Shown one piece after another: positions 2,104 to 37,521 of a DNA stretch of 55,161 bases; the stretch's first letter is position 1, and each line of letters begins with the position of its first letter. The DNA lies in contig JAJYWS010000005.1 of assembly GCA_021791335.1 (NCBI GenBank), positions 1-55,161 of the forward strand, read 5' to 3'. The notes beneath the pieces are model-generated. The model was not told where the DNA came from, searched no databases, and saw nothing but the letters and a program-made list of their open reading frames with translations. Origin of the DNA: Thermoplasmata archaeon (GTDB lineage: Archaea > Thermoplasmatota > Thermoplasmata > Lutacidiplasmatales > UBA184). The position numbers were made by a program, and so were the translations under genes.

Positions 2104-2853
2104 ATGGCGCGGCGCCGGACCGATCGGGCCCCGGAGCGGCGGCCCCGGTCCCGCTCGGCCCCCGGCGGAGCGAACCCTTCCGGGCTTCTCCAGATGACCG
2201 CCCGGATCGAACCGGACCCCAGTTGGGTGCGGCGGCTCGCCCGCGCCCACGGCCTCACGGTCCGGATGCGGGCCTGCCAGCCGATCCTGCCGGGGGGTCG
2301 CCGGTCGGTCCACCTGCTGGAGCTGAGCGGCGCCCCCGACGAGGTGGACCGGGCCCTGGCCTCGCTGCCCGCCGATCCGGAGGTCCTGCGGGTCACCGAA
2401 GCCCCCCGGGGCCCGTCCGACCCCGCCGTCGTGCGGATCGAAGCGACCACGAACCCACGCTGCCGGATCCTCTTCACGGCCGGGCTCCTGTGCCGGAGCT
2501 GCCGATTCCTGGAGGCCCCCGGCGCCGGGCCCGACTCGTGGGAGGTCATCGGTCCCCGCTCGACCTCGACTCCGGCCGAACGTCAGGCCCGCGAACAGGC
2601 CCTGACGCGCGACGGGGCGGTCCTGCGGAGCCTGCGCTCCTGGACCACCCGTCCCGGGCTCACGCCCCGGCAACGGACGGCCCTGGAGGTCGCCCGCCGG
2701 CTCGGCTACTTCGGGGTGCCGCGCCGTGCCGACCTGGCGGCGGTCGCGAAGGAACTCGGGGTGAGCCGATCCAGCGCGGCCGAGCTCCTCCACCGCGGGG
2801 TCTCCCGGATCCTCGCCGAGGCGTTCGACTCGGCCCCGCCGCTCCACCGCTGA
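2104..2853 (+). CDS. HTH_10 (Bat-type) DNA-binding regulator
   Basis: The C-terminus LTPRQRTALEVARRLGYFGVPRRADLAAVAKELGVSRSSAAELLHRG matches the archaeal HTH_10 pattern. A weak TATA (TGATAC, 2074-2079) lies 25 nt upstream of ATG 2104. ATG 2194 (MTARIEP) is an alternative start. Confidence 0.65.
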   Translation: MARRRTDRAPERRPRSRSAPGGANPSGLLQMTARIEPDPSWVRRLARAHGLTVRMRACQPILPGGRRSVHLLELSGAPDEVDRALASLPADPEVLRVTEAPRGPSDPAVVRIEATTNPRCRILFTAGLLCRSCRFLEAPGAGPDSWEVIGPRSTSTPAERQAREQALTRDGAVLRSLRSWTTRPGLTPRQRTALEVARRLGYFGVPRRADLAAVAKELGVSRSSAAELLHRGVSRILAEAFDSAPPLHR

Positions 2854-2881
2854 GGGTCGCCGGACCCGGGAGCGGTCCCGG

Positions 2882-4021
2882 ATGATCCACGGACGCCAGC
2901 CCCGGCTGGTCTTCTGGGAGACGACCCGAAGCTGTCCGCTCCGCTGCCGCCACTGCCGGGCCGGCGCCCGGGCGGCCCCGGCCCCCGGGGAGCTCTCGAC
3001 CGCCGAGGGGTTCGCGGTACTGGAGTCGATCGCCCGGTGGGAGGTCCCGCGGCCGGTCCTGGTCTTGACCGGTGGGGATCTCCTCGCCCGGCCGGACCAC
3101 CCGGAGCTCGTCGCCCGGGCCCGCTCGCTCGGGCTCAGCGTCGCCGTGGCCCCCGCCGTCTCCGACCGTCTCACCCCGAAGCTGATCGGTCGGTGGGCCG
3201 ACCTCGGGGTCTCGGCGCTCTCCTTCAGCCTCGACGGGGCCACCCCCGGCTCCCACGATGCGCATCGGGGCGTGCCGGGGACCTTCCGGGCCACCTTTCA
3301 GGCGATCGCCGAGGCCCAGGCCGCGGGGCTGCGCGTCCAGGTCAACACGACCGTGCTGCCGGATCGGCGGGAGGAGTTGGGCGCCCTCTGCGCCCTCCTG
3401 AAGCTCCACCGGGTGCCGGTCTGGGAGCTCTTCTTCCTGGTCCGGACGGGCCGGGCCGCGACCCTCCCCGAGATCTCCCCCGCGGAGTACGGCGCGGTCG
3501 CCCACCTGCTCTACGATGCCTCGCGCTACGGCCTCCTCGTCCGCGCGGTCGAGGGTCCGTGGCTCCGGCGGGTCCATCACGAGCGGGAGGCCGGCGCCGC
3601 CCCGCCCCGCGATGGGGGCTACCCGGTGATGGCCGCTCGGCTGCGCCGACGCCTGGGGCCGCCGACCCACCCCTCCTCGATCGCTCCGGTCGGCACCCTC
3701 GATGGCGACGGGATCGTCTTCGTCGGCCATGACGGCACGATCACCCCGGGCGGTCTCCTGGACCTTCCCATCGGCTCCGTACGCACGGACGATCTGCGGG
3801 CCGTCTACCAAGGGCACCCCCTCGTGCAGGCGATCCGGGCGCGCCGGTTCTCGGGAGCGTGCGGCCGGTGCCCGGCCCGTAGCTACTGCGGCGGCAGCCG
3901 GGCCCGGGCCTGGGCGGAGACCGGCGATCCCTTGGGCAGCGATCCGGCCTGCCCCTGGGCCCCTGAGCTCGGGCCGGCTCCGCCCGGGGTCGCTGCGGCC
4001 GGGGAGGTCCCGCCGGGATGA
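2882..4021 (+). CDS. Radical SAM/SPASM protein, AhbD/NirJ-like
   Basis: A CxxxCxxC motif (CPLRCRHC) sits near the N-terminus. A C-terminal Cys-rich SPASM-like region is present (ACGRCPARSYCGG...DPACPW). The protein is 379 aa long. Confidence 0.8.
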   Translation: MIHGRQPRLVFWETTRSCPLRCRHCRAGARAAPAPGELSTAEGFAVLESIARWEVPRPVLVLTGGDLLARPDHPELVARARSLGLSVAVAPAVSDRLTPKLIGRWADLGVSALSFSLDGATPGSHDAHRGVPGTFRATFQAIAEAQAAGLRVQVNTTVLPDRREELGALCALLKLHRVPVWELFFLVRTGRAATLPEISPAEYGAVAHLLYDASRYGLLVRAVEGPWLRRVHHEREAGAAPPRDGGYPVMAARLRRRLGPPTHPSSIAPVGTLDGDGIVFVGHDGTITPGGLLDLPIGSVRTDDLRAVYQGHPLVQAIRARRFSGACGRCPARSYCGGSRARAWAETGDPLGSDPACPWAPELGPAPPGVAAAGEVPPG

Positions 4022-4506
4022 ACGGCCTGGAGATCGCGGTGCTCTACGTGCACCTCTTCGCGGCCGTCCTCTTCGTCGGGGGCTCGTTCTTCTTCTGGCT
4101 GATCCTCGAGCCGGTCACCTACACCCTCACCCGGGACGAATCGGAGCGGACGGCCCTGGTCGCCCGGGTCGCCCGGCGGTTCGGCCAGTTCACGAACCCG
4201 CTCCTGATCCTCCTCGTGGCGACCGGGATCTACAACGCGACGTGGTACCTTCCGTCCCTCTCGGCGCTCACCATGACGCCCGGGGGGGAACTCCTCCTCA
4301 CCAAGGGGCTCGTCGTGGCCGTGCTGATCGCGCTGATCTACCTTCACGGCGCCTACTACGGGCCGAAGATCGTCCGGCTCGCCCGGGAACGCCGCTACGA
4401 CGAGCTCCGGGCGCTGCGGCGGCGGAGCCGAGCGGTATCGATGATCAACCTCGCCCTCATGCTGGCCGTCCTCCTGCTGGCGGTCCTGCTCCAGTCGTAT
4501 CCGTGA
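4018..4506 (+). CDS. CopD/HemJ-like four-TM membrane protein
   Basis: The start overlaps the radical SAM stop (ATGA). There are four predicted TM helices. A conserved-looking His lies in TM1 (YVHLFAAVLFVGG) and another in TM4 (IYLHGAYYG). Confidence 0.6.
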   Translation: MNGLEIAVLYVHLFAAVLFVGGSFFFWLILEPVTYTLTRDESERTALVARVARRFGQFTNPLLILLVATGIYNATWYLPSLSALTMTPGGELLLTKGLVVAVLIALIYLHGAYYGPKIVRLARERRYDELRALRRRSRAVSMINLALMLAVLLLAVLLQSYP

Positions 4507-4520
4507 GGCACCGGGATCGG

Positions 4521-5519
4521 ATGCGGCCGGCCGACGATCGTCCGGGGATCCTCCTCGTGGCGCTGGGCGCGCCCGACACGCTCGACGAGGTTCCGGAGTT
4601 CCTCTCGGCGATCCGGGGGGGCCGGCCGACGCCGCCCGCCCTCGTCGGGGAGTTTGTCGAACGGTACCGGGAGATCGGCGGCGGCTCGCCCCTCAACCGG
4701 ATCGGCCGGACCGTGGCCCGCCGGCTGGAGGCGCGGATGGAGCTCGGGGGGCGGTCGGTCGTCTGCCGGTACGGGACCCTCCACGGCGCCTCGTCCGTGG
4801 AGCAGGGGTATGACGATCTCCTCGGGGCCGGCGCGACCCGCGTCGTCGTCCTCCCCTGGACGCCGTTCTACACCCCCTGGGGCGTCGGCCGGTACCTCGC
4901 GCGGGTCCGGGCGCTCCGACGCCGCCGGTCGGATCTTCGGCCGGTGGGCTACTTCACCGGCTGGCACTCCGCGCCCGGCCTCGCCCGGGCCTGGGCCCGG
5001 CGGATCGCGGCGGCCTCCGACAGCCTGGCCGACCGCTACGGTGAGCCGCCGACCCTGCTCTTCTCGGCCCACAGCCTGCCCGACCGCCCTGACGATCCGC
5101 CCCGGCCGTACACGAACCAGATCGATGCGCTGCGGGCCGGGATCGAGCAGGCGCTAGCCCCGCACCGGGCGATGCTGGCCTACCAGAGCGTCGGTCGGGC
5201 CGAGGGCCCCTGGTTGGGGCCCGCCGTGGAAGCGGAGGCGGATCGGCTGCTTCGATCGACCACCGCGCCGGTGCTGCTCGCCCCGATCGGGTTCCTGGCC
5301 GACAACCTGGAGATCCTCTACGATCTCGACCGGGCCCTCCGGCGCCGCGTCGGCGAGCGGGCCGAACGGCTATACCGGGTGCCGTCCTTCAACGCCGACG
5401 ACGACCTGGTCGCGACCCTGATGGAGGTCCTCGGGCCGGTGATCCCTGCCCTCCGGGGCCCGACGGGGTCCGCCGCCGCGGGCCGGCCGCAACCGGGGGC
5501 CGGCGCCGACCGGTGGTGA
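4521..5519 (+). CDS. hemH: Ferrochelatase (HemH/CpfC family)
   Basis: This is the C-terminal 332 aa of ORF 3702..5519. Motifs are GILLVALGAPDTLDEVPEFL, FSAHSLP and FLADNLEILYDLD. GTG 4503, overlapping the upstream stop, is an alternative start. Confidence 0.8.
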   Translation: MRPADDRPGILLVALGAPDTLDEVPEFLSAIRGGRPTPPALVGEFVERYREIGGGSPLNRIGRTVARRLEARMELGGRSVVCRYGTLHGASSVEQGYDDLLGAGATRVVVLPWTPFYTPWGVGRYLARVRALRRRRSDLRPVGYFTGWHSAPGLARAWARRIAAASDSLADRYGEPPTLLFSAHSLPDRPDDPPRPYTNQIDALRAGIEQALAPHRAMLAYQSVGRAEGPWLGPAVEAEADRLLRSTTAPVLLAPIGFLADNLEILYDLDRALRRRVGERAERLYRVPSFNADDDLVATLMEVLGPVIPALRGPTGSAAAGRPQPGAGADRW

Positions 5520-5571: not shown

Positions 5572-5925
5572 TCACCCCGGGTCCGGTCCGGTTGGGTCGG
5601 GAAGCGGCTCGACGATCAGCCGGAGCTCCCGAACGTCCACCTCGGCCGGTGCCCAGGGCCGTCGGTACCGGAAGCGGATCGTAAAATGCCCGGCCCGGTC
5701 CGCCTCGAACCGGAACCGTTGGGTGCCGCCCCGTCCCGGACGGACCGGGAGCTCGGGATCGTAGCGGTCGGCCCGCAGGTCGATCCCCTCCGGAAGCGGG
5801 TCCAACTCCCAACGGAACCCGGTCGACGGGCGGGCGGGCCAGCCCACGTCGATCGGCTCCCCCACCCGGGCCCTTCGGACGACCGGGAGGCCTTCGGAGC
5901 CGCCCCCCTCCGGGGGATCGTTCAT
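5572..5925 (-). CDS. Chagasin-like cysteine-protease inhibitor (I42 family)
   Basis: The 117-aa protein contains ..ARPSTGFRWELD.. (NPTTGYxW-like) and ..RFRFEADRAGHFTIRFRYRRPWAP... No signal peptide is evident. Its ATG overlaps the purT stop (ATGA). Confidence 0.65.
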   Translation of the reverse strand: MNDPPEGGGSEGLPVVRRARVGEPIDVGWPARPSTGFRWELDPLPEGIDLRADRYDPELPVRPGRGGTQRFRFEADRAGHFTIRFRYRRPWAPAEVDVRELRLIVEPLPDPTGPDPG

Positions 5926-7172
5926 CGGGGGCGGGGCGGCACCGGCGGGTAGGCGATCTTCGCCTCGACGGCGTGGGCGGCCGCGGCGGCCTTCCGACGG
6001 GCCTCCGGCAGGGTGGCTCCCCGGGCGACCGCGACGCCCAGCCGCCGGTCCGGGTACGCCTCGGGCTTTCCGAACAGGTAGAGCCGGACCCCCGGCTCCG
6101 TGAGGGCCTCGGAGAGCCCGCCGAGTTCGGGCGCCGGAGCCGAACGGTCGGCCAGGATGACGTGCGCCGCCGCCGGTGTGGTCGGTTCCGGTCCTCGGTA
6201 GGGGAGCCCGAGGATCGCCCGGGCGTGGAGGGCGAATTCGCTGTTCCACTGGCTGCCGAGCGTGACGAGGCCGGTGTCGTGGGGCCTCGGCGAGACCTCG
6301 CTGAAGTAGACCCGGTCCCCGGCGACGAAGCACTCGACGCCGAAGAGGCCGAACCCGCCCAGGCTGTCGGTGATCCGCCGGGCCACCCGGTCGAGCTCCG
6401 CCTCGACGGGCGCGGGAAACCGTTCGGGCTGCCAGCTCTCGTGGTAGAGGGTCCCCGGCCGGGCGTGGGCGATCGGCGCCAGGACCGTGGTCTCCCGTCG
6501 GCCCCCGGGCGCGTAGTGCCGGAGGGTCAGCATCGTGACTTCCCGGTCGAACCGGAGGAACTCCTCGACCATGACCCGGGGGTCGGGGACCCGGCCGTGC
6601 TCGCTCGCCTCGATGTAGGCGCGGTCGACCTGCTCCGGCCGGTCGACCCGGGTCATGCCGTGACCCGAGCTCGACATCATCGACTTGAAGAGGCAGGGAA
6701 AGCCGATCGCCCGGGCGGCGGCCCGCGCCTCGTCGAGGGAGGCGGCGACCTGGAACCGGCTGGTCGGCACCCGGGCGAGGTCGACGGCCCGGCGGCGGAG
6801 CCGTTCCCGGTCCATCGTGAGCCGGGTCGCCTCGGCGTTCGGGATCACCGTCCAGCCGTCCGATTCGAGCCTCAGCAGCTCCTCGGTGGCCACCTGCTCG
6901 ATCTCGGGCACGATGAGCTCCGGCGCCTCCCGCTCGACGACCGCCCGGAGCTCGGCCGGGTCGGTCATGGGGATCACGTGGTGCCGGTGGGCGACCTGCA
7001 TCGCGGGGGCATTCGGGTAGCGGTCGACCGCGATCACCTCGGCGCCGAGCCGCATCGCCTCCAGCGCGATCTCCCGGCCCAGCTCCCCGCTGCCGAGGAG
7101 CAGGAGCCGGGGGGCGGTCCCGACCACCGGGCTCCCGATCCGGTCCCGGTAGGCCACATTGGGGTCCGGCAT
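5922..7172 (-). CDS. purT: Formate-dependent phosphoribosylglycinamide formyltransferase (GAR transformylase 2)
   Basis: The 416-aa protein has LLLLGSGELGREIALEAMRLG, an ATP-grasp core, and SPRPHDTG. It starts at ATG 7172; the upstream part of ORF 5922..7784 is rejected. Confidence 0.85.
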   Translation of the reverse strand: MPDPNVAYRDRIGSPVVGTAPRLLLLGSGELGREIALEAMRLGAEVIAVDRYPNAPAMQVAHRHHVIPMTDPAELRAVVEREAPELIVPEIEQVATEELLRLESDGWTVIPNAEATRLTMDRERLRRRAVDLARVPTSRFQVAASLDEARAAARAIGFPCLFKSMMSSSGHGMTRVDRPEQVDRAYIEASEHGRVPDPRVMVEEFLRFDREVTMLTLRHYAPGGRRETTVLAPIAHARPGTLYHESWQPERFPAPVEAELDRVARRITDSLGGFGLFGVECFVAGDRVYFSEVSPRPHDTGLVTLGSQWNSEFALHARAILGLPYRGPEPTTPAAAHVILADRSAPAPELGGLSEALTEPGVRLYLFGKPEAYPDRRLGVAVARGATLPEARRKAAAAAHAVEAKIAYPPVPPRPR

Positions 7173-7219: not shown

Positions 7220-7906
7220 TCACCGCGGGGCGTAGAGCCGGGCGACGGCGGTCCGGACGTCGGCGTCGACCGCGTCGGGGTCCCGGTCGGCGTTGACCCG
7301 GACGAAGCCGTACTCCTTCGCCATCCAGTCGAACTCGGTCTGGAGCAGCCGCTGGAAGGCGAAGAAGCTCTCGAACCGGTCCCGGGAGATCGAAAGATCC
7401 ATCCCGGACTCCCAGTAGTCGAGCGATCCGTACCGGGCGATCGCCCGATGGAGGAGGATCTCGGGCCGGGCGTCGAGGAAGACGGTGAGGTGGGGGACCA
7501 GGGCGAACGAGTAGAGCTTGCGGGCCCACTCCCGGGTCGCGCCCCGGACCACCGCCCGGGCCATCAGGGTGTAGATGTACCGGTCGGCGAGCACGGCGCT
7601 CCCGGCCACCAGCGAGGGGAGGATCTTGTTCTCGAGCTGGTCGGCGAAGTCGGCGGCGTAGAGGATCGACATCGTCGTCGGGCTCAGGGTGTGGCCCTGC
7701 TTCGCCCGGTCGATCTCCGCACCGACCAGGCGGGAGCGCCGCAGGCCGGTGTCGACCACCGGATGCCCCTCGATCTCGAGCCACTCCTTGAGCCGGGCGA
7801 CCTCGGTCGTCCGGCCCGAGCCGTCGGCCCCCTCGATGACGATGAGCCGCCCCTGGATCGGGCCGTCGGTGGCCCGGGGAAGCCGGGTGCCGTAGGTCTC
7901 AGCCAT
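7220..7906 (-). CDS. dTMP-kinase-like P-loop protein with a degenerate Walker A (GADGSGRTT)
   Basis: The 228-aa protein has a Tmk-like layout (..LYAADFADQLE.., ..ADRYIYT..). The invariant P-loop Lys is replaced by Arg. It overlaps the upstream paralogue by 8 nt. Confidence 0.7.
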   Translation of the reverse strand: MAETYGTRLPRATDGPIQGRLIVIEGADGSGRTTEVARLKEWLEIEGHPVVDTGLRRSRLVGAEIDRAKQGHTLSPTTMSILYAADFADQLENKILPSLVAGSAVLADRYIYTLMARAVVRGATREWARKLYSFALVPHLTVFLDARPEILLHRAIARYGSLDYWESGMDLSISRDRFESFFAFQRLLQTEFDWMAKEYGFVRVNADRDPDAVDADVRTAVARLYAPR

Positions 7907-8606
7907 GGACGAGCGCCTCCGCGGTGGGGAAGTCGACGAGGAGCGGTCGGACCTCCTGACGGACCGACGCGACGACCTCCTCGACGCTCCGGTCGGCCCG
8001 GATCGTCACGAAGCCGTCCCGGGGCGCGAGCCGGTCGTACTCCCGCTTGAGCCGGGTCTGGAAGAGCCGGAAGCTCTCGAGCAGGCTCTCCGAGAGCCCC
8101 AGGTCCATGCCGGCCTCCCAGGTGTTGATCTTTTCGCGCGCGGCGAGCTTCCTCGCGATCGAGGTCGCGACGGGGACCCGGAAGTAGAGCACCCGGTCCG
8201 GCCGCGGGGCGAAGGCGTAGAGGTTGCGGACCCACCGGGGATCGCAGCCCCGGGCGGCGTCCCGGGCGAAGGCGGTGTAGGCGTAGCGGTCGCAGACGAC
8301 CAGATAGCCGGCCCGGAGCGGCGGGGCGATGTGCCGCTCGAAGCGGTCGGCGAAGTCGGCCGCATGGAGCAGCGAGAAGGTCGTCGCCGTCAGCAGGTTC
8401 TGCTTCTTGCCCCGCCGGATCGCGTCGGAGACCAGTTCCGACGAGTTCCACTCGGTGAAGAAGACCCGGTAGCCGAGCGCGCCGAGCCACTTGACCAGGA
8501 GCCGGGCCTGCGTCGACTTCCCGCTCCCGTCGAGCCCTTCGAAGGCGATGATCCGGCCCGGGTACCCGTGGCCCCCCGGCGGAGGCGTCCGACGGTCAGC
8601 GGGCAT
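7899..8606 (-). CDS. dTMP-kinase-like P-loop protein with a canonical Walker A (GLDGSGKST)
   Basis: The 235-aa protein is Tmk-like (..LLHAADFADRFE.., ..CDRYAYT..). It overlaps the ppx stop by 11 nt. Confidence 0.7.
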   Translation of the reverse strand: MPADRRTPPPGGHGYPGRIIAFEGLDGSGKSTQARLLVKWLGALGYRVFFTEWNSSELVSDAIRRGKKQNLLTATTFSLLHAADFADRFERHIAPPLRAGYLVVCDRYAYTAFARDAARGCDPRWVRNLYAFAPRPDRVLYFRVPVATSIARKLAAREKINTWEAGMDLGLSESLLESFRLFQTRLKREYDRLAPRDGFVTIRADRSVEEVVASVRQEVRPLLVDFPTAEALVHG

Positions 8607-10131
8607 CGACCTCCGCGCCCAGCCCGAACCGGTCGTCGAGCGGCCGGACCACCTTTTCGAGGAGCCGCTCCCGGCCGGCGGCCCCGAACCGGGGGGGCAG
8701 GTGGAGCGAGAGCCGCCGTCCGCCCCGGACCGGGGTCGCCCGGACCCCCAGATCGGTGAGCGTCGCCGCGACCCGCACGAGGGTGCCGAGAAGGCCGGCC
8801 GTTTTAAGGCTAGTTCCGTCCAGCAGCGGCCGCCACTCCCGCCGGACCCCCTCCGGCAGGTCGTCTTCCCGGGCCATGACCGCGAGCGCGGCGAGGCCGA
8901 TCGACCGGTGGGAGAGCCCGAGGTGGGGGAGGTGGCGCAGCAGGTAGGAGGAGTGCCGCTCCTGCCGCCAGTCGTCGACGACCCGGCCGAGGTCGTGGAG
9001 GACGGCGGCGGTCGCGAGCGCCATCCGCTCCTCGTCGCCCCACCCGCGCCGCCGGGCGACGGCGTCGTAGAGCCGCTCGGCGAGCGCCCGGACCTTGAAG
9101 TGCCGGGGCACCAGCGGTCCGAAGGTCATCCCGATCGAGTCGAGCGACCGGTCGAGCAGCGTGTCGGCGGAAGCGGGGACGGGGATCCGGGCGAACTCGA
9201 CGAGCAGCCCCTCCCGGATCCCGTGCCCGCTCACCAGGATCCGGTCGAGCCCCGTCCAGTCGAGGAGGCATCGGAACGTCTCGAGGCCGGCCGGGAGGAC
9301 CTCGGCCCGGGACCGGCCGATGCCCGGGAGCGCCCGGCGCCGCTCGGCGGCCATGGGGTGGAGGATCTCGCCGAGCGCCTCGAGATCGCTGCGGTGGAGC
9401 TCGAATCCGTGGGCCTGGGGCAGCGGGTACCCCCTCAGCTGGACGACGGCCCGGGCGAGCGCCCGGCCGGTGCCCCCGACCGCGATCAGCCGCCGGGCGC
9501 CGCGCAGACGCCGGACGGTCTCGAGCCGCGCCTCGACCTCGTCGGCGAGCCGCCGACGCTCCTTGGGCAGCGGCGGATCGTGCTCGAAGAAGCGGTCGGA
9601 GAGCCGCTGGGCCCCGAGCGGCAGCGAGACCGCCTCCCCGAACCGCCCGCCGCGGACCCGGACCAACTGGAGCGATCCGCCGCCCAGATCGGCGATGAGG
9701 TCGCGGTCGAGCGGCCAGGCGGCGGCGACCCCGAGATAGCCGTAGTACGCCTCCTCCGACCCCGAGAGCACCCGCAGCCGGAGGCCGGTCCGGCGCCGGA
9801 CCGCCTTCCGGAACCGGTCTTGGTTCGGCGCGTCCCGGACCGCGCTGGTCGCGACGGCCCGGACCGGCGGGTTCCCGAGCTCCTTCAGGTCCCGGGCGAA
9901 CCGGTCGAGCGCCTGGAGCCCCCGGTCGACCGCCCCCGGGCTCAAGCTGCCGTCGTCGGCGACCTGCCGGCCGAGCCTCGGGACCTCCTTCGCCCGGAAG
10001 ACGACCCTGAACCCGCCGTGGGCCCCGACCTCGTAGACGGCGAGCCGGGCCGTGTGGGAGCCGACGTCGATCACGGCCGCACGGCCGACCCGGATCCGCC
10101 GGACCGACCGGGGCGATCTCCCTCCGGTCAC
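8596..10131 (-). CDS. ppx: Exopolyphosphatase (Ppx/GppA family) with a C-terminal HD domain
   Basis: Motifs are AVIDVGSHTARL, IADLGGGSLQL and AAVLHDLGR. The protein is 511 aa long. Confidence 0.85.
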   Translation of the reverse strand: MTGGRSPRSVRRIRVGRAAVIDVGSHTARLAVYEVGAHGGFRVVFRAKEVPRLGRQVADDGSLSPGAVDRGLQALDRFARDLKELGNPPVRAVATSAVRDAPNQDRFRKAVRRRTGLRLRVLSGSEEAYYGYLGVAAAWPLDRDLIADLGGGSLQLVRVRGGRFGEAVSLPLGAQRLSDRFFEHDPPLPKERRRLADEVEARLETVRRLRGARRLIAVGGTGRALARAVVQLRGYPLPQAHGFELHRSDLEALGEILHPMAAERRRALPGIGRSRAEVLPAGLETFRCLLDWTGLDRILVSGHGIREGLLVEFARIPVPASADTLLDRSLDSIGMTFGPLVPRHFKVRALAERLYDAVARRRGWGDEERMALATAAVLHDLGRVVDDWRQERHSSYLLRHLPHLGLSHRSIGLAALAVMAREDDLPEGVRREWRPLLDGTSLKTAGLLGTLVRVAATLTDLGVRATPVRGGRRLSLHLPPRFGAAGRERLLEKVVRPLDDRFGLGAEVDAR

Positions 10132-11006: not shown

Positions 11007-11768
11007 ATGGTCGACGCCTCGCTGTCCCTCGGGGCGGTCGTCGGGGTGCTGCTCTCGGGGGGGTTCGTCTACTACGAGGTCGGCCGGTTCGCGACCCCCC
11101 AGGTGGAGGAGACCCGGTTCAACGAGCGCCGGGCGATCTTCGCCTATACGGGCGGGTTGTTCGTCGGGGTCCCGCTGGCGATCTTCCTCCTCCTCTTCCT
11201 GACGTCGACGGGGAACGGCGCCTGGCCGGGCGCGATCCTCTTCCTCGGCCTCCTCCTGGCGGTCGGGGAGGGGGCCGAGTGGGGGCTCCTGCGGAGCCGC
11301 TACTTCGGCACCGGGCCGGCCGGCCCGTTCTACGCGCTCGCGTTCCGGGCCGGGGTCGCGGCGATCCTCATCCTCGCGATCATGGCCCAGGTGCTGGGCG
11401 CCCCGACGCTGAGCGCCCCCGCGATCGGCCTCGCCCTCGGCCAGTCGCTGGCCCTCCTCGCCTTCGGCGCGATGGGCGCATTGATGAGCCTGCCCGGCCG
11501 CTACCGCTCCGACCGACGGGCGACGCCGATCCTCTCGGTCGCGCTGGGGGGGTTCGGCTACCTGCTGATCGCCTTCCCCACCTTCAGCGGGCCGGCGGTG
11601 GGCGCCGCGGCCCTGGGGGTGGGCATCGTCGGCGCGGGCTACCTCTACCTGCAGCAGCGACCGCTCCTCGCGACGATCCCGCCGCCGTCGGGCCCGGCCG
11701 CCCGGCCGGGGGTCGGCGCCCCCGGTTCCCGGTACGGGCGGACCGAGCCGCCGCCGCGGCGGCCGTAG
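11007..11768 (+). CDS. Polytopic membrane protein, function unknown
   Basis: The ATG directly abuts the trmI stop. There are about 7 hydrophobic segments, and the composition is protein-like rather than shadow-ORF-like. Confidence 0.5.
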   Translation: MVDASLSLGAVVGVLLSGGFVYYEVGRFATPQVEETRFNERRAIFAYTGGLFVGVPLAIFLLLFLTSTGNGAWPGAILFLGLLLAVGEGAEWGLLRSRYFGTGPAGPFYALAFRAGVAAILILAIMAQVLGAPTLSAPAIGLALGQSLALLAFGAMGALMSLPGRYRSDRRATPILSVALGGFGYLLIAFPTFSGPAVGAAALGVGIVGAGYLYLQQRPLLATIPPPSGPAARPGVGAPGSRYGRTEPPPRRP

Positions 11769-11805
11769 CCGGGGGTCGGCCCCCCCGCGCGCCGTTCCAT
11801 ACCTT

Positions 11806-11812
11806 CTTATTT
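11806..11812 (+). promoter_or_regulatory. TATA-like box (CTTATTT)
   Basis: It lies 23 nt upstream of ATG 11835. Confidence 0.35.
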
Positions 11813-11834
11813 GCCGGGTCATCCCGCCTACCGT

Positions 11835-12260
11835 ATGTCGGCCGGTCCCTCGCCGAGGAAGTGGAGCCGTCGGTGGGAGGAGGGGCTCCGGACGTACCGG
11901 GCGCTCGTCGCCGACTTCATCCTCGCCGTCGGCATCTTCCTGACGGTCCTGGTGGTCGGCTACTTCACCCCCCTCTCGACCGTCGGGCCGTTCCCGGCGA
12001 TCAACGCGGTGACCGCGACGCCGACGACGAACTACAACCTCCTCTTCGCGGTCCTCGGACCGATCCTCGTCATCATCGGCGGGTACATGGCCGGGGCGTA
12101 CTACTTCGCCCGGCTCCAGTTCGAGCACCTCATGCGGACCCGCAGCAAGGCCGAGTTCCTCCGCAACATCCCCGAGCTGGAGGAGGCGCTCGCCGAGCTC
12201 ACCCCCGCGGATGAGCTCCGCTACGCCCAGCGGCTCGGGGAGCTCCGCATCCGGCGCTGA
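11835..12260 (+). CDS. Two-TM membrane protein with a helical C-terminal tail, function unknown
   Basis: It lies in ORF 11811..12260. I moved the start to ATG 11835 because the TTG at 11811 sits inside the TATA box. Confidence 0.5.
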   Translation: MSAGPSPRKWSRRWEEGLRTYRALVADFILAVGIFLTVLVVGYFTPLSTVGPFPAINAVTATPTTNYNLLFAVLGPILVIIGGYMAGAYYFARLQFEHLMRTRSKAEFLRNIPELEEALAELTPADELRYAQRLGELRIRR

Positions 12261-12281
12261 CGCGAGGGCCGGGCCCCGCGA

Positions 12282-12289
12282 TTTAAGTA
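12282..12289 (+). promoter_or_regulatory. TATA-like box (TTTAAGTA)
   Basis: It lies 22 nt upstream of GTG 12311. Confidence 0.4.
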
Positions 12290-12310
12290 TTCCGCGCCCC
12301 TCGACGGGAG

Positions 12311-13210
12311 GTGGCCGCCGCGCCCCCTGCCGCCCCGAAGGAGGAGATCCTCTACCGGAGGCTCCGCAAGCCCGAGGAGTTCCGGCAGGTGGAGGAGCTC
12401 CAGCGGAAGATCTGGGGGCACCGCGACGAGCCCACCCTCTCCCCCGGGCTCCAGCGGGCGGTCCAGGACAACGGCGGGATCGTGATCGGCGCCTTCGTCG
12501 ACATCTACCTGGTCGGGTTCACCTTCGGCTTCATCGGGTGGGACGGCCAGACGCTCTACCACTACTCCCACCTGACCGGGGTCCGGCCCGAGTACCAGCA
12601 TCACGGCGTCGGGTTCCGGCTGAAGCTCGCCCAGCGCGACGAGGTGGTCGCCTCGGGGCTCCCCCAGATCCGGTGGAACTTCGATCCGCTGCAGAGCCGC
12701 AACGCGAACCTGGCGCTCCGCAAGCTCGGCGCCCGGCCGGACCGCTACATGGTCCATTACTACGGCCAGATCTCCGACCGGGTCCACGAGGGGCAGGAGA
12801 CCGACCGGCTGCGGGCGGTCTGGACCCTCGAGGAGCCCCGGGTGGTCGAGCGGATCGGCGGCCGCCGGCCCTCCCGGGAGGAGGAGCTCACCCGCTGGGA
12901 GCAGGCGAAGCCGCTCCTCGAGACCGAGGAGGGGCCGAGCGGACTCCGCCGGCCGGTCGCGGTCGAGGAGCCGTCGGGCCGGGGGGAGGCGGTGCTCGAG
13001 ATCCCGTTCGACCTCGCGGTCCTCCAGGAGCACGACCCGGAGTCGGTCCGGCGCTGGCGGCATGCCGTCCGCGACGCGTTCCGGGCCGCCTTCGACCTCG
13101 GGTGGACGGTCGACGACTTCGCCGTCGTCCGCAAGGAGCACGAGCGCCGGGCGGGCTACATCCTCCGCCCCCCCGCGCCGACGGCGTTGGTTCCGCCCAA
13201 CGGGAATTGA
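12311..13210 (+). CDS. GNAT-superfamily acetyltransferase-like protein (COG3375-type)
   Basis: Motifs are ..GGIVIGAFVD..LVGFTFGF..YSHLTGVRPEYQHHGVGFRLKLAQR.. and ..WNFDPLQSRNANLALRKLGA... It uses a GTG start. Confidence 0.6.
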   Translation: MAAAPPAAPKEEILYRRLRKPEEFRQVEELQRKIWGHRDEPTLSPGLQRAVQDNGGIVIGAFVDIYLVGFTFGFIGWDGQTLYHYSHLTGVRPEYQHHGVGFRLKLAQRDEVVASGLPQIRWNFDPLQSRNANLALRKLGARPDRYMVHYYGQISDRVHEGQETDRLRAVWTLEEPRVVERIGGRRPSREEELTRWEQAKPLLETEEGPSGLRRPVAVEEPSGRGEAVLEIPFDLAVLQEHDPESVRRWRHAVRDAFRAAFDLGWTVDDFAVVRKEHERRAGYILRPPAPTALVPPNGN

Positions 13211-30609: not shown

Positions 30610-32451
30610 GTGCCGCCAGTGGAGTTCCGGGTCCTGGGCAAGGTCGTCCCCCGCAGCGATGAGAGCGACTTCGATCCCGTCACCCTGAGGCTCCGCCGGG
30701 AGGGGGTCCCCCAGTTCCTGAACCCGCTCGACCAGCGGGCGCTGCGGATCGCGCTGGATCTCCGGGCGCCGGCCGAACCGGTCCGGCTGCTCTCGCTCGG
30801 CCCGCCGGGGGTGGCCCCGGTCCTGGCCGAGAGCTACGCCCTGGGGGTCGACGAGATCGACCTCCTGTCCGATCCCGCGTTCGCGGGCTCCGACACGCTG
30901 GCCACGGCTCGGCTCATCGCCCGCGCGGTCGGCCGCGCCCCCGCCTCCACGATCCTCGTGACCGGCGAGCGGAGCACCGATAGCGAGACCGGGCAGGTGC
31001 CGGCCCAGATCGCCGAGATCCTCGGCTGGCCGCTCTTCAGCGGGGCCCGGGAGATCCGCCGGCCGCCCGACGGCGATCGGTGGGAGATCACGACCGATTC
31101 GGAGCCGGGGTGGAGCCGGTACCGGGCCGCGCCGCCGTTCGTCGTCAGTGTCGGGGAAAAGGTCGCCCCGCTCCGCAAGGCGGCCCCCGAGGAGATCGAG
31201 GCCGCCCGCCGACGGCCCGTCCCCGTCCACTCGGCCGAGGCGCTCGGCGTGGACCCTGCGACGGTGGGGGCCCGAGGGTCACCGACCCGGGTGCGGTGGT
31301 GGCGGCCCGACGCCCCCCGGCGGAGCCCCGTGGTGCTTGCCGAGGGGCCGCTCGAGGAGCGGATCGGCCGGGCCGCGGCGATTCTCCGGTCCCGATGGGA
31401 ACGATCGGGGGCCGGGGCCCCGGCCGGGTCGCCCGGCGCCCCCCTCCGGCTCACGGGTCCCATGGCGGTCCTGGTCACCGACGAGGACGGCCACCCCGAC
31501 CCCGAGGCCATCGCGATGCTTTCCGCGCTGCGGGCGCGGGCGCCCCGGGTCGAGATCCGGGCGCTCTGGGTCGGAGCGACGCCCTCGACCGCGGAGGAAG
31601 AACGGCTCCGCCGGGCCGGCGCCGATCGGGCCGACCACTGGCCGGTGCCGGACGGGATCTGGGATGCGGCCGGGGTCGCCGAAGCGCTGGCCGGCCTCTT
31701 CCGCTCCTCCGGGCCGTTCCTCGGGGGGCTTTTCGTCTCCCACCCCTTCGGCCGAGCGGTCGCGGGCCGGCTGGCGGCGCGGCTCGGATGCGGCCTGACG
31801 GGGGACGCCGTCGGCCTGGCCGAGGAGGAGGGTGCGCCGGTCTGGATCAAGCCGGCGTCGGGCGGCTCGGCGAGCGCGGGGATCGCCGCGAGCGGCCTCC
31901 CCCACCTGGCCACGGTCCGGCCCGGGGCGTTCGAGGACGCGGGCCGTCGCCCCGATCCGGGGCCGATCGACTGGTCGAATCACGCCGCCCTTTCCACCGA
32001 GGGCCGGTATGCCCGGGTCGCGGCGGACCGGACGCCGGATCCGGCGCTCTCCCGTCTGCGGCGGGCGGAGGTCGTGGTCGTGGTCGGCCGGGGCTCGGGG
32101 GGCCCGGAGCGCTGGACCCGGATCGCGCCGATCCTGGAGCGTTGGGGGGCCGCCTGGGGGGCGACCCGGAAGGTGGTCGACGCCGAGCGGTTGCCGAAGG
32201 GGCGCCAGATCGGACTCACGGGCGTCTCGATCGCCCCGCGGCTTGCGGTGCTGCTCGGGGTCGGGGGGTCATCGAACCATCTGATCGGACTCCGTCGGGC
32301 CGGCACCCTGCTCGCCGTCAATTCGGATCCGGCGGCCCCGGTCTTCGCGGGGGTCGATGTGGGGATCGTCGCGCCGATCGAGGAGGTCCTCCCCCTCCTG
32401 CCCGGGGCGTTCGGGTTCCTCGGGGGAGCCTCTCGGTCCCCGGAGCCGTAG
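30610..32451 (+). CDS. Fused electron transfer flavoprotein, EtfB-like N-terminal half and EtfA-like C-terminal half
   Basis: The N-terminal half has ..AFAGSDTLATARLIA..TGERSTDSETGQVPAQIAEILGWP.. (EtfB-like). The C-terminal half has ..VVVGRGSGGPE..GATRKVVDAERLPKGRQIGLTGVSIAPRLAVLLGVGGSSNHLIGL..LLAVNSDPAAPVF.. (EtfA-like). It is a single 613-aa ORF. Confidence 0.75.
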   Translation: MPPVEFRVLGKVVPRSDESDFDPVTLRLRREGVPQFLNPLDQRALRIALDLRAPAEPVRLLSLGPPGVAPVLAESYALGVDEIDLLSDPAFAGSDTLATARLIARAVGRAPASTILVTGERSTDSETGQVPAQIAEILGWPLFSGAREIRRPPDGDRWEITTDSEPGWSRYRAAPPFVVSVGEKVAPLRKAAPEEIEAARRRPVPVHSAEALGVDPATVGARGSPTRVRWWRPDAPRRSPVVLAEGPLEERIGRAAAILRSRWERSGAGAPAGSPGAPLRLTGPMAVLVTDEDGHPDPEAIAMLSALRARAPRVEIRALWVGATPSTAEEERLRRAGADRADHWPVPDGIWDAAGVAEALAGLFRSSGPFLGGLFVSHPFGRAVAGRLAARLGCGLTGDAVGLAEEEGAPVWIKPASGGSASAGIAASGLPHLATVRPGAFEDAGRRPDPGPIDWSNHAALSTEGRYARVAADRTPDPALSRLRRAEVVVVVGRGSGGPERWTRIAPILERWGAAWGATRKVVDAERLPKGRQIGLTGVSIAPRLAVLLGVGGSSNHLIGLRRAGTLLAVNSDPAAPVFAGVDVGIVAPIEEVLPLLPGAFGFLGGASRSPEP

Positions 32452-34692: not shown

Positions 34693-35883
34693 TCAGAGGA
34701 CCGACTCGAACTCCTTGGTGATCTCGGGGTACTTGTCGTGGACCGCCTTGAGGATGTTGTGGACGGTCAGCTTCTGCAGCCGGACATCGGCGAGCGCATC
34801 GATCACCTTGTCGAAGGTCGCGTCGGAGAGGGTGCAGAGCTTCTCCTTCGCGAGCCAGTTGCGGAAGAGCTTCTCCTCCAGCTTGGCCCGCCAGCCCTTC
34901 TCATACTTCTGGAAGAACTCCTTCGTCGGGGTGCCGAGGCGGACCGCCTCGGCCGCGACCTCGCCGCAGATCTTCCCGGCGATGCAGCCGTTGGCGATCC
35001 CCCCGCCCGTCAGCGGGTCGATCATCCGGGCGGCGTCCCCGACCAGCATGAGCCCGTCGGTGACGGTCTGGTTGAGGGGCTTCGAGATCGAGACCCCGCC
35101 GCCGACCATGTCGATCTTCTTCCCCTTCGCGTAGGCCGGGTGGGCGGCGATCCACCGGTCGAGGTAGCTCTTCGCCTCGGCCATCCCGTGGATCTTGGAC
35201 AGCTGGACCCCGATGCCGACGTTGGCGAGTCCGTGGTCCTTCGGGAACACCCAGACATAGCCCCCGGGCGCCACCTCCCCGAGGTAGAAGTCGCAGTATC
35301 GGACATCGCAGTCGACCCCGGTCATGCGGTACTGCAGGCAGGAGTCCATGTCCCGGAGCGCGAGGTTGGTCGGGATCCCTCCCCAGCGTCCCACCTGGCT
35401 TTCGAATCCGTCCGCGCCGACCACGACCGAGGCCCGGATCTCGATCGGTTCGCCGAACTGCTTCGCCCGGGCCCCGACGATGCGGCCGTTCTCCCGGATC
35501 AGGCCGGTGGCCGCCGTTTTGAGCTGGATGTCGACGCCGGCGTTGCCGGCGTCGATCGCGAGCGCCTTGTCGAAGCCGTCGCGCTCCACCACATAGCCGA
35601 CCTCGTTGCCGGCGTGCTTCTCGTTGATCTCGAAGACCTTCTCGGAGGGCGAGTAGATCCGGGCCCCCTCGACCTCGAGGTTGATCCACTTGCCGGGGGT
35701 GATGCCGACCTCGGAGAGCCAGCTCTTGCTCATCCCTTCGCCGCAGCGGACCGGGCTTCCGATCTCCTGCCGCTTCTCGATCATCAGGACCCGGGCGCCG
35801 CTCTTGGCCGCCCATTTGGCGGTCATGCTGCCCGCGGGGCCGGCGCCGATCACCAGGACATCCGTGCTGAGATCCTTCGCCAT
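34693..35883 (-). CDS. Digeranylgeranylglycerophospholipid reductase (geranylgeranyl reductase family)
   Basis: Motifs are VIGAGPAGS, VRCGEG, PGGYVWVFP and VGDAARMIDPLTGGGI. The protein is 396 aa long. Confidence 0.9.
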   Translation of the reverse strand: MAKDLSTDVLVIGAGPAGSMTAKWAAKSGARVLMIEKRQEIGSPVRCGEGMSKSWLSEVGITPGKWINLEVEGARIYSPSEKVFEINEKHAGNEVGYVVERDGFDKALAIDAGNAGVDIQLKTAATGLIRENGRIVGARAKQFGEPIEIRASVVVGADGFESQVGRWGGIPTNLALRDMDSCLQYRMTGVDCDVRYCDFYLGEVAPGGYVWVFPKDHGLANVGIGVQLSKIHGMAEAKSYLDRWIAAHPAYAKGKKIDMVGGGVSISKPLNQTVTDGLMLVGDAARMIDPLTGGGIANGCIAGKICGEVAAEAVRLGTPTKEFFQKYEKGWRAKLEEKLFRNWLAKEKLCTLSDATFDKVIDALADVRLQKLTVHNILKAVHDKYPEITKEFESVL

Positions 35884-36231: not shown

Positions 36232-37521
36232 ATGGCTCCCCGCACGGAGGTCACCCCCCGCGCCGGATCCCCGGAGCCCCGCGTCGAGCGGGGCGTCCGA
36301 TCCGTCCGCCCCGCGGCCCGTCGGTTCCTGGCCCGGTATCTGCCCCCCGTCCGGTGCACCTGGCTCGCCCTGGTCGCCCTGGCGATCGGTTCGCTCCTGG
36401 ACCTGGGGGGGCTGGGGGTCGGCTCCCTGGTCGTGCTCCCGGTCGTGGCGGTCGCCACCGATCTCGCCTGGTCGCGGATCCGGTTCGAACGGCTCCGGTT
36501 TCCCGACGCGGCCCTGGTGACCGGCCTTCTCCTCGCGCTCCTCTTTCCCCCCACGGTTTCCCTCGCGGCCGCCGGTGCCTGCGTCCTGGCGGCCACCTCG
36601 CTCCGGCACGCGCTCCGGTTCCGCGGTCATCCGTGGTTCAACCCGGCCGCCCTGGGGGTCGTCCTGGGCGCGCTCGTCTTCGGGATCTCGCCGGCCTGGT
36701 GGGTCGGGGTGAGCCCGACCGGGGAGATCGCCCTCGTCGTGATCGGGGTGCTGCTCGCGCTGCGGAGCCCCTCGACCTGGCGGGTTCCGGCCACCTTCTT
36801 CCTGGTCTACGGTGTCGTGGCGGGGCTGGTCCATTTCCTCTTCGGCGGGATCCTCTCGGGGGAGCTGCTGCTGCTCTACACCTTCGACTCGGTCGCCCTC
36901 TTCTTCGGATTCTTCATGGTGGTCGAGCCCCGGACCGCGCCCTCCGACCCGGCGCTGCAGCCGATGTACGCCGGGACGGTGGCCGTGGCCTCGGTCCTGC
37001 TCTCGCTGGTGATGCCGAGCCTCGGCATCCTGGTCGCGCTCCTCTTCGGGAACCTGATCGCGATCGGCCTCCGGCAGGCCGCACCGGACCGCACCGCGGC
37101 GGTCTCGGCCTCCCGCCGGCCCGGCCGCCGGGCGGTGCCGCCCCCCGTCCGCTGGTCGGTGCCCCGGCGGATCGGGGCGACCCTGCTCACCTTCCTGATC
37201 GTGGGGGCGGTCGCGCTCTCCCTCCCGGCCGCGACGGTCACCGCACCGCTGGTCTCGGCGCCGCCGGGCGTCGGCCCGACGACGCCCTCCAGCGGCTGCC
37301 AGACCGACAACCCCTCGATCCCCGCCGCCACCCTTTCGATGCTCCACCAACGGCTCGGCCCCTCGGTGATCCTGAGCTACAATCCGAACACCGGCGCGGT
37401 GGTGTTCTACGATCCGGTGAACCACGTCACCGTGTCCGAGTTCGATCTCTACGAGGACTTCGGCTACGCCGAGTTCAACGGGGACGACTACGCGGTCCAG
37501 GGCTGCGCGCCCCCGGGCTGA
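36232..37521 (+). CDS. Orphan RnfD/NqrB-like polytopic membrane protein with a C-terminal soluble domain
   Basis: Motifs are ..RGHPWFNPAALGVVLG.. and ..FMVVEPRTAPSD... No other Rnf/Nqr subunits are nearby. The roughly 90-aa C-terminal domain carries 2 Cys. Confidence 0.6.
   Translation: MAPRTEVTPRAGSPEPRVERGVRSVRPAARRFLARYLPPVRCTWLALVALAIGSLLDLGGLGVGSLVVLPVVAVATDLAWSRIRFERLRFPDAALVTGLLLALLFPPTVSLAAAGACVLAATSLRHALRFRGHPWFNPAALGVVLGALVFGISPAWWVGVSPTGEIALVVIGVLLALRSPSTWRVPATFFLVYGVVAGLVHFLFGGILSGELLLLYTFDSVALFFGFFMVVEPRTAPSDPALQPMYAGTVAVASVLLSLVMPSLGILVALLFGNLIAIGLRQAAPDRTAAVSASRRPGRRAVPPPVRWSVPRRIGATLLTFLIVGAVALSLPAATVTAPLVSAPPGVGPTTPSSGCQTDNPSIPAATLSMLHQRLGPSVILSYNPNTGAVVFYDPVNHVTVSEFDLYEDFGYAEFNGDDYAVQGCAPPG

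Follow-up and report, generated by a model that had tools for sequence, protein, structure and literature searches.

Archaeal haem synthesis is described in textbooks and recent reviews as following the siroheme (Ahb) route. Also relevant here are HemJ/PgdH2 (PF03653), a membrane-bound, haem-b-containing and O2-independent protoporphyrinogen dehydrogenase; CgoN (YtpQ) of Priestia megaterium, an FAD-dependent, O2-independent coproporphyrinogen oxidase, which is a soluble flavoprotein with a quinone as acceptor; and ChdC, which decarboxylates coproheme with O2 or H2O2. Thermoplasma and Picrophilus have been known since 2002–2010 to carry hemE and hemH, and Storbeck et al. (2010), who found neither hemF, hemN, hemG or hemY nor ahb-nir genes there, called the route 'unclear' (PMC3004389). 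HemJ was found in 0 of 89 archaea (Kobayashi et al. 2014), and a 2026 review holds that the known enzymes now account for haem synthesis in every organism that makes it (PMC13564367). The same review describes AhbD homologues in Gram-positive bacteria that use the coproporphyrin-dependent (CPD) pathway and have no other Ahb enzymes, as a possible anaerobic coproheme decarboxylase (PMC13564367); what accepts electrons from AhbD and CgdH in the cell is acknowledged to be unknown (PMC10114771). Here we describe a 55,161-nt stretch of DNA from a Thermoplasmata archaeon (GenBank assembly GCA_021791335.1, contig JAJYWS010000005.1, positions 1 to 55,161 of the forward strand; hereafter the window), in which genes for an HTH_10-family transcription regulator, a radical S-adenosylmethionine (SAM) enzyme, a small membrane protein of the CopD superfamily (hereafter CopDl) and a HemH-type ferrochelatase lie in a row. 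Our literature searches found nothing on Thermoplasmata haem genes.

The cluster is very probably a terminal haem-synthesis module, most likely of the CPD type and not of the Ahb type. A preliminary description of this DNA had read it as a possible hybrid terminal haem pathway. The terminal haem module is borne out by relatives that carry the same genes beside hemE, ChdC, hemA, hemL, hemB, hemC and hemD with no CgoX; 'hybrid', however, overstated the case, the route being a coproporphyrin-dependent one with O2-independent alternatives. We observed directly the family assignments, the motifs, the gene order and the conservation of the neighbourhood, and from these we infer all substrates and activities. 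It is plausible, at rather less than even confidence, that the operon supplies O2-independent enzymes for the three final steps of a CPD-type haem route, and CopDl is the best current candidate for the coproporphyrinogen oxidation step that appears to be missing from otherwise complete archaeal clusters.

The preliminary description had proposed four co-directional genes, with an ATGA junction and a possible GTGA overlap at GTG 4503, and all four open reading frames (ORFs) were confirmed on the sequence, coordinates and junctions included. The radical SAM gene is separated by 28 nt from the regulator gene, and its stop overlaps the CopDl start in the ATGA at 4018–4021. The CopDl stop TGA lies at 4504–4506; the ferrochelatase frame has its first ATG at 4521, 14 nt past that stop, and GTG 4503 would give the GTGA overlap instead. 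The stop codon of the ferrochelatase gene is at 5517–5519. The G+C content of the window is 73%, and three of the four operon ORFs have the codon-position GC pattern of real genes (G+C at third codon positions 0.91–0.94). The frames of the regulator and the ferrochelatase were missed by the codon-position GC filter, yet have strong Pfam matches.

The radical SAM enzyme (379 aa, positions 2882–4021, + strand) matches Pfam Radical_SAM with 63.5 bits. Its top NCBIfam model is TIGR04053 (387.6 bits vs. a cut-off of 395, model positions 5–366 of 366), a family with no assigned function in NCBIfam, on which our literature searches found nothing. Its second is the AhbD model TIGR04545 (213.1 bits vs. 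a cut-off of 500), which it matches over its full length (residues 9–361 on model positions 1–339), followed in order by NirJ2 (147 bits), NirJ and AhbC (114 bits). A peptide-maturase identity was rejected, the maturase families scoring no more than 82 bits and only on the N-terminal core. The preliminary description had called the enzyme AhbD-like, which stands in that AhbD is the second-best family over the full length and that no non-tetrapyrrole maturase clade claims the protein; it does not stand for AhbD in the strict sense. The protein is best assigned to TIGR04053, the closest relative of AhbD, and is not AhbD proper. Proteins with ~50% identity to it are found in Thermoplasmata, Nitrososphaerota, Actinomycetota and Thermaerobacter, and are named in their sources either TIGR04053 or 'AdoMet-dependent heme synthase' (NCBI uses TIGR04053 for those at 50–56% identity).

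The predicted CPLRCRHC sequence is present as a CX3CX2C motif (C18/C22/C25), and the C-terminal cysteines form a CX2CX5CX20C cluster (C327, C330, C336 and C357); all seven are invariant across 19 archaeal and bacterial homologues. The SPASM-type C-terminal cluster that had also been proposed was not recovered: Pfam SPASM (PF13186) gave no match to the protein at E ≤ 0.01, and there are four rather than seven conserved C-terminal Cys. In AhbD the C-terminal motif is CX2CX5CX2CX17C, and the auxiliary-motif class has been described for AhbD, AhbC and NirJ (PMC10114771). The window's CX2CX5CX20C is a single auxiliary motif of this AhbD/NirJ type. A search for structural relatives returned no close solved structure for the enzyme. 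The TIGR04053 family is probably what the CPD literature calls the 'AhbD homologues' of Gram-positive bacteria, an equation drawn from reviews. Because of its homology to AhbD, the enzyme would be an O2-independent isoenzyme of ChdC, and we favour with moderate confidence its assignment as a coproheme decarboxylase.

The ferrochelatase (332 aa from ATG 4521, positions 4521–5519, + strand; alternative start GTG 4503) matches PF00762 with 170.1 bits (cut-off 27) and TIGR00109 with 131.3 bits (cut-off 124.6). Its best solved relatives are the CpfC enzymes of Firmicutes (Bacillus anthracis, B. subtilis, Listeria and Staphylococcus; 103–115 bits), and the human and yeast ferrochelatases score only ~47–55 bits against it. 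In LmCpfC coproheme is held by R29 (to propionate p7), R45 (to p6), Y46 and S53 (to p4) and Y124 (to p2) (PMC7340540). We mapped these ligands onto the window enzyme through the printed alignment, and the equivalents are R32, R48, Y49, S56 and Y125, which are kept in 22–23 of 23 archaeal homologues, the set on which the comparison was made. The catalytic residues H184 and E264 (H183/E264 in BsCpfC and H182/E263 in LmCpfC) are invariant in all 23. No C-terminal Cys cluster is present in the window sequence, and the enzyme is therefore of the monomeric Firmicutes type, not the actinobacterial [2Fe-2S] type. On the choice between CpfC and PpfC signatures, which the preliminary description had raised, all five propionate ligands speak for CpfC (the axial Tyr12, which is not kept, is weighed below), and the ferrochelatase probably acts on coproporphyrin. 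In one Nitrososphaerales locus (L034), two ferrochelatase paralogues (8786–9946 and 11655–12737; 422 and 197 bits) flank the CopDl/radical SAM pair, and both retain all CpfC ligand residues.

CopDl (162 aa, positions 4018–4506, + strand) is annotated everywhere as 'copper resistance protein D'. It matches Pfam CopD (PF05425) with 47.5 bits (gathering cut-off 32.1), as do 22 of 22 members of its family. Against the NCBIfam copper-homeostasis CopD model NF033808, it scores 34.6 bits vs. a cut-off of 195, on model positions 151–292 only, the C-terminal half of ~295 aa. Homologues of 155–175 aa with 55–60% identity occur in Thermoplasmata, Nitrososphaerota and Bathyarchaeia. A whole-library profile search with CopDl returned 11 cluster representatives at E ≤ 1e-30, and its ~70-bit matches were CopC-CopD fusions. 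The profile matches of 480–530 aa, considered as Rosetta-stone fusions of the radical SAM enzyme with CopDl, were likewise CopC-CopD copper proteins, and that idea was rejected. Weak matches of the CopDl family were to DUF2269, DUF4149, DUF2214 and Sdh_cyt, a cytochrome-b subunit family (matched weakly by 11 of the 22 members).

The AlphaFold model of CopDl (predicted local distance difference test score, pLDDT, 88.9) has four long helices at residues 3–37, 41–77, 88–123 and 127–159, and the positive-inside rule places the basic loops 32–56 and 112–138 in the cytoplasm. Four transmembrane helices, with His in the first and fourth, had been expected. The helices and the first His (H12) were found, but H110, the only other His of the protein, is found where helix 3 ends. 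It is not conserved family-wide, being Asn in stand-alone Thermoplasmatales proteins and Pro in Marsarchaeota. An intramolecular bis-His haem site was rejected, H110 being unconserved and, by topology, in the opposite leaflet from H12. Invariant across the family are H12, G21, G22, S23, E41, R44, T45, Y77, Y108 and R134, five of which (E41, T45, Y77, Y108 and R134) are confined to the small archaeal family. E41, T45, Y108 and R134 fall on the predicted cytoplasmic face, the side of the substrates, and Y77 in the outer leaflet. The preliminary description had likened the protein to both CopD and HemJ; its matches make CopDl a member of the CopD family, not of the HemJ family. CopDl and HemJ are nevertheless of the same broad kind, small His-bearing helical membrane proteins, and the first helix of HemJ presumably resembles that of CopDl in having a conserved His followed by a Gly-rich stretch. 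Our literature searches found nothing joining HemJ and CopD.

We scanned with the CopDl alignment, taking one genome per species, and obtained 80 loci, whose neighbouring genes were scored by local phmmer with the proteins of the window and of a Nitrososphaerota locus (L007). In 31 of the 80 loci CopDl has a TIGR04053 gene as its neighbour, in co-directional, convergent and divergent arrangements and in three archaeal lineages; a Marsarchaeota locus also carries the pair. A ferrochelatase gene is found at 17 loci, and a hemC-hemD-hemB-ChdC-hemL-hemE cluster at 8, with hemA confirmed beside L007 and L034. The order radical SAM-CopDl-ferrochelatase is kept in relatives at 81%, 69% and 56% identity of the radical SAM protein, the last with different flanks and no HTH_10 gene. 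In L007 the radical SAM and CopDl genes are divergent from ferrochelatase-hemE-hemL-ChdC-hemB-hemD-hemC-hemA. Genes for hemE, ChdC and ferrochelatase share one cluster in seven loci (L007, L032, L034, L036, L045, L077/L084 and L088), and an eighth locus (L083) has hemE, ChdC, radical SAM and CopDl, with no ferrochelatase detected. CgoX (HemY-type) or CgoN was not found in the window, the Pfam-annotated loci or the scanned haem-cluster gaps; in several haem clusters these gaps held hemA or unrelated genes, with no CgoX of the amino-oxidase type. Genes for ahbA, ahbB, ahbC and siroheme synthesis were absent within 10 kb in the annotated loci and from the window. A search for ChdC returned many Thermoplasmata homologues, none of them tied to the window's genome.

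The linkage is tightest between the radical SAM enzyme and CopDl. In a neighbor-joining tree the window's CopDl belongs to a 14-member subclade of Thermoplasmata, every member of which has an adjacent radical SAM gene and 13 of which have the ferrochelatase gene as well; radical SAM linkage also occurs in other CopDl subclades. In ~9 loci, including the window's clade, the radical SAM and CopDl frames overlap, stop on start, by 4 nt (ATGA-type), and the two genes are ≤ ~26 nt apart in ~14 further loci. A relative with 86% identical CopDl (L011, 4586–14585) has the HTH_10, radical SAM and CopDl genes and no ferrochelatase gene downstream. The radical SAM-CopDl pair, not the triad, is the conserved core, and its arrangement is not due to chance.

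Some further features of these loci deserve mention. Several metagenome-assembled genomes (MAGs) carry two or three CopDl paralogues (L037 and L088 in YP4.bin112; L042/L077; L031/L084; L033/L040/L079), and one MAG holds two complete radical SAM-CopDl-ferrochelatase triads; multiple copies in one MAG reflect either true paralogy or mixed-strain bins. In a Nitrososphaerales MAG (L019), the TIGR04053 gene beside CopDl (9066–9988) is in three ORF pieces, by frameshifts or as a pseudogene. Two loci from MAGs labelled bacterial (L030 and L054; Candidatus Acidoferrum and Methylomirabilota) group in the tree with CopDl of Bathyarchaeia and Nitrososphaerota, which is likely due to bin contamination or horizontal transfer.

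The full archaeal clusters encode every step of the CPD route from glutamyl-tRNA to haem, save the oxidation of coproporphyrinogen, and only two extra genes are conserved in them, those of the radical SAM enzyme and CopDl. Since these clusters lack an enzyme for the oxidation, and ChdC and the AhbD-like enzyme would cover the decarboxylation, the oxidation step falls most simply to CopDl. We therefore propose, tentatively, that CopDl is a coproporphyrinogen oxidase or dehydrogenase. In the first step, CopDl, working on the cytoplasmic side of the membrane, would oxidize coproporphyrinogen III to coproporphyrin III and deliver six electrons into the quinone pool, perhaps by way of a haem b that it binds; it would be analogous to HemJ/PgdH2, though not a member of that family. 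The CpfC-type ferrochelatase would then insert Fe2+ to give coproheme. Finally, the TIGR04053 enzyme would convert the propionates of rings A and B into vinyl groups by AhbD-like chemistry, in which a 5′-deoxyadenosyl radical abstracts hydrogen and the electron leaves through the single auxiliary [4Fe-4S] cluster. The end product would be haem b, formed without O2 or H2O2, and the HTH_10 regulator, with its four-Cys N-terminal domain, may control the operon in this lineage. More tentative still is the wider form of this proposal, that CopDl is a novel membrane coproporphyrinogen III dehydrogenase, non-homologous at the family level to HemY/CgoX, HemG, HemJ and CgoN, which would supply the missing step in Thermoplasmatota, Nitrososphaerota and Marsarchaeota, perhaps in a membrane-bound complex with CpfC and the radical SAM enzyme, and so make the route fully O2-independent.

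Several observations weigh against this proposal. No member of the CopDl family (22 tested) matched the HemJ model PF03653 even at E ≤ 10, and because of this we can only infer an oxidase role for CopDl; a distant small CopD/DUF4149 relative (P0258) did match PF03653 weakly (E = 0.00096, below the cut-off). Foldseek of the CopDl model against the PDB returned nothing at E ≤ 0.001, only generic or de novo four-helix bundles and neither HemJ nor CopD. H12, G21-G22, R44, N73 and K96 are common to CopDl and the CopC-CopD copper proteins. CopDl stands alone in 47 of the 80 loci, where its context is uninformative; in Thermoplasmatales, for example, it adjoins rpS7/rpS12. The surroundings of stand-alone copies in Nitrososphaeraceae, on a 2.1-Mb archaeal contig and in Chloroflexota are uninformative too. 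Two stand-alone copies have radical SAM genes nearby, but these are unrelated to TIGR04053. Furthermore, the tightest link is that of CopDl with the radical SAM enzyme, not with the ferrochelatase, which fits a partner role equally well. The radical SAM enzyme itself scores just under the cut-off of its own family and far under that of AhbD; an invariant Ser339 stands in place of the fourth Cys of the AhbD motif, which the window protein lacks; and in two bacterial TIGR04053 loci that we inspected there were no haem neighbours and no CopDl. In the ferrochelatase, the axial Tyr12 of Firmicutes CpfC is replaced by Leu15. In the 23-sequence alignment this position is Leu or Val in all 16 sequences of the Thermoplasmata clade and Tyr in the seven of Nitrososphaerota type.

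The partner role is the main rival reading. CopDl would serve the radical SAM enzyme as an electron acceptor or anchor in the membrane, carrying the electron of coproheme decarboxylation from the auxiliary [4Fe-4S] cluster to the quinone pool, and the coproporphyrinogen would either auto-oxidize in air or be oxidized by an enzyme whose gene lies elsewhere. The adjacency of the two genes, the most conserved of all, often with overlapping or closely spaced frames and even where no ferrochelatase is present, is what one would expect of such partners; the weak Sdh_cyt matches of half the family point the same way, and an acceptor is precisely what the accounts of AhbD and CgdH leave unfilled. The bacterial TIGR04053 enzymes, however, have no CopDl nearby, many CopDl genes (in Thermoplasmatales and Bathyarchaeia) have no radical SAM gene within 10 kb, and the oxidation step of otherwise complete archaeal clusters would stay unfilled. 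We regard this reading as unlikely, but it is the one that survives best after the assignment of CopDl as the oxidase.

CopDl could instead be a membrane receiver or chaperone that takes over haem or coproheme from the radical SAM enzyme or the ferrochelatase, delivers it to membrane cytochromes and has no redox role. Its small size, membrane location, invariant helix-1 His and conserved cytoplasmic-face patch would suit such a function, as would its tight linkage to the last enzyme of the pathway. We consider it improbable, given that the missing oxidation step is again not filled, that the CopD superfamily offers no precedent and that stand-alone copies of CopDl are common.

The oxidation could also be assigned to the radical SAM enzyme itself. 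BtrN and anSME are radical SAM dehydrogenases that send a substrate electron to an auxiliary cluster, and by analogy the TIGR04053 enzyme could be an O2-independent coproporphyrinogen III dehydrogenase, with CopDl as its electron sink and ChdC, encoded in the cluster or at another site, as the decarboxylase. ChdC is already present in the 8 full clusters, so that a second decarboxylase is not strictly needed there and an oxidase is what is missing; the family is also a distinct one, at 213 bits to AhbD vs. the cut-off of 500, and has a single auxiliary cluster. However, AhbD, NirJ and AhbC, its nearest characterized relatives, all modify iron tetrapyrroles at propionate or acetate side chains. 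Finding ChdC beside an AhbD-like enzyme is also unsurprising, since an O2-dependent enzyme is commonly paired with an O2-independent one, as HemF is with HemN. According to the CPD literature, moreover, CgoX is already present in the bacteria that have TIGR04053 (PMC13564367). We hold this reading to be quite improbable.

Least probable of all is that CopDl is an ordinary copper-handling CopD, active in import or resistance and present in the operon by chance or as a supplier of copper for haem-copper oxidases, a reading that has in its favour the Pfam CopD gathering score and the residues shared with its ~70-bit distant relatives, the CopC-CopD fusions, but against it the distance from the NCBIfam equivalog cut-off, a length of half a CopD with the four-helix module only, the absence of any CopC domain from the ORFs of 95 loci and the window (96 sequences, 1.48 Mb), the absence of copper genes, whose presence nearby the preliminary description had named as part of a possible refutation, from the Pfam-annotated CopDl neighbourhoods, and a repeated linkage to haem genes instead.

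The regulator (249 aa, positions 2104–2853, + strand) matches Pfam PF04967 with 55.7 bits (cut-off 23.1) over residues 186–237, a C-terminal helix-turn-helix. Its N-terminal domain carries four cysteines, C58 and then C120-x9-C130-x2-C133, which are invariant in an alignment of six Thermoplasmata orthologues, and no Pfam domain covers this region; the pattern suggests a sensor of a metal, an iron-sulfur cluster or haem. The AlphaFold model from the single sequence has a pLDDT of 57. Orthologues occupy the same position in seven loci (L001–L004, L010, L011 and L018) and lie downstream in another (L012). There is no HTH_10 gene at the triad in L005 or in the Nitrososphaerota loci. The dedicated HTH_10 regulator of the preliminary description is thus retained for the window's own Thermoplasmata lineage, to which the link between HTH_10 and the operon is confined, and not beyond it.

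The nearest homologues of the window come from Thermoplasmata MAGs. Near-identical sequence is present in acid-mine-drainage, tailings and sediment metagenomes, and in a search for evidence of transcription the sequence was found in DNA runs only. The remaining genes of the 55-kb window are housekeeping or otherwise unrelated genes: a U32 peptidase-like gene, chorismate mutase, a chagasin-like inhibitor, purT, two Tmk-like genes, Ppx, MoxR/DUF58, isoleucyl-tRNA synthetase, an electron-transfer flavoprotein (ETF), a geranylgeranyl reductase, an ATP-binding cassette transporter, argG/argH and a LysX-type cluster. The window contains no hemA, hemL, hemB, hemC, hemD, hemE, ChdC, CgoX, Ahb or siroheme gene.

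The haem operon is immediately preceded by two divergent genes, the U32-peptidase-like one (409 to ~1640, − strand), whose product has a Cys-rich motif at its C terminus, and one for a small type II chorismate mutase (1668–2009, + strand); L003 and L004 retain this synteny. Since some U32 proteins are O2-independent quinone hydroxylases, a link of the U32-like gene to quinone metabolism is conceivable. Convergent with the ferrochelatase gene is an ORF resembling chagasin-family (I42) inhibitors (~5572–6050, − strand), absent from this position in L001 and L003. Two thymidylate-kinase-like genes in tandem (7220–7906 and 7899–8606, both − strand, with an 8-nt overlap) adjoin a Ppx/GppA phosphatase gene (8596–10131, − strand), in an arrangement kept in L001–L004. 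A fused ETF beta-alpha gene (30610–32451, + strand, 613 aa), a gene for a geranylgeranyl-reductase-like flavoprotein (34693–35883, − strand) and one for an RnfD/NqrB-like membrane protein (36232–37521, + strand) lie near each other and may form an electron-transfer module.

Both the occurrence of an AhbD-like enzyme together with CPD genes in Gram-positive bacteria (PMC13564367) and that of hemE and hemH in Thermoplasmatales (PMC3004389) are already known. What is new is that, in several archaeal phyla, the radical SAM enzyme and the ferrochelatase have a conserved partner from the CopD family. Many Thermoplasmata and Nitrososphaerota loci have complete coproporphyrin-type clusters with no known coproporphyrinogen oxidase, and TIGR04053 gains a functional context here for the first time. 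If CopDl is the oxidase, the gap noted in 2010 for Thermoplasma and Picrophilus would be closed, a classic pathway would acquire a new type of enzyme, and a widespread mis-annotation as a copper protein would be corrected. If it is instead the electron sink, the question of the physiological electron acceptor of AhbD/HemN-type decarboxylases would be answered.

Compared with known systems, AhbD is the best characterized relative of the window's radical SAM protein. The two align over their full length and share CX3CX2C and a C-terminal CX2CX5C...C, and the same substrate (coproheme) and chemistry are predicted for the window protein. Unlike AhbD, it has no ahbA, ahbB or ahbC neighbours, and a HemH-type ferrochelatase stands beside it instead. 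The bacterial members of TIGR04053 (Actinomycetota and Thermaerobacter) are 48–53% identical to the window protein and have the same seven invariant Cys; linkage to CopDl and ferrochelatase is found on the archaeal side, the gene standing alone at both bacterial loci inspected.

The CopD/PcoD/YcnJ proteins (PF05425) share with CopDl the residues H12, G21-G22, R44, N73 and K96, which belong to the C-terminal module of the CopC-CopD fusions. CopDl has only this four-helix module, with 162 aa vs. roughly 300–530 aa, and unlike those proteins it has no CopC partner, has invariant residues of its own and lies in a haem rather than a copper context. CgoN would occupy the same pathway step as CopDl under anoxia, with quinone, but is an unrelated protein, and neither the window nor the fetched loci showed a gene of the CgoN type. 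HemJ/PgdH2 is, like CopDl, a small multi-helix membrane protein, and CopDl is likewise proposed to pass porphyrinogen electrons to the membrane, although its substrate would be coproporphyrinogen III, not protoporphyrinogen IX.

The CPD pathway of Firmicutes and Actinobacteria (HemE, CgoX, CpfC and ChdC) follows the same logic as that proposed for the archaeal clusters, in which the porphyrinogen is oxidized, iron is inserted and decarboxylation comes last. A HemH-type ferrochelatase with coproheme-propionate ligands is common to both, and the window's relatives also have hemE and ChdC. Unlike the bacterial pathway, the archaeal clusters have no CgoX or CgoN in or beside them; the radical SAM enzyme joins ChdC or, in this window, may replace it; and a membrane protein of the CopD family is a conserved extra member, in an archaeal host.

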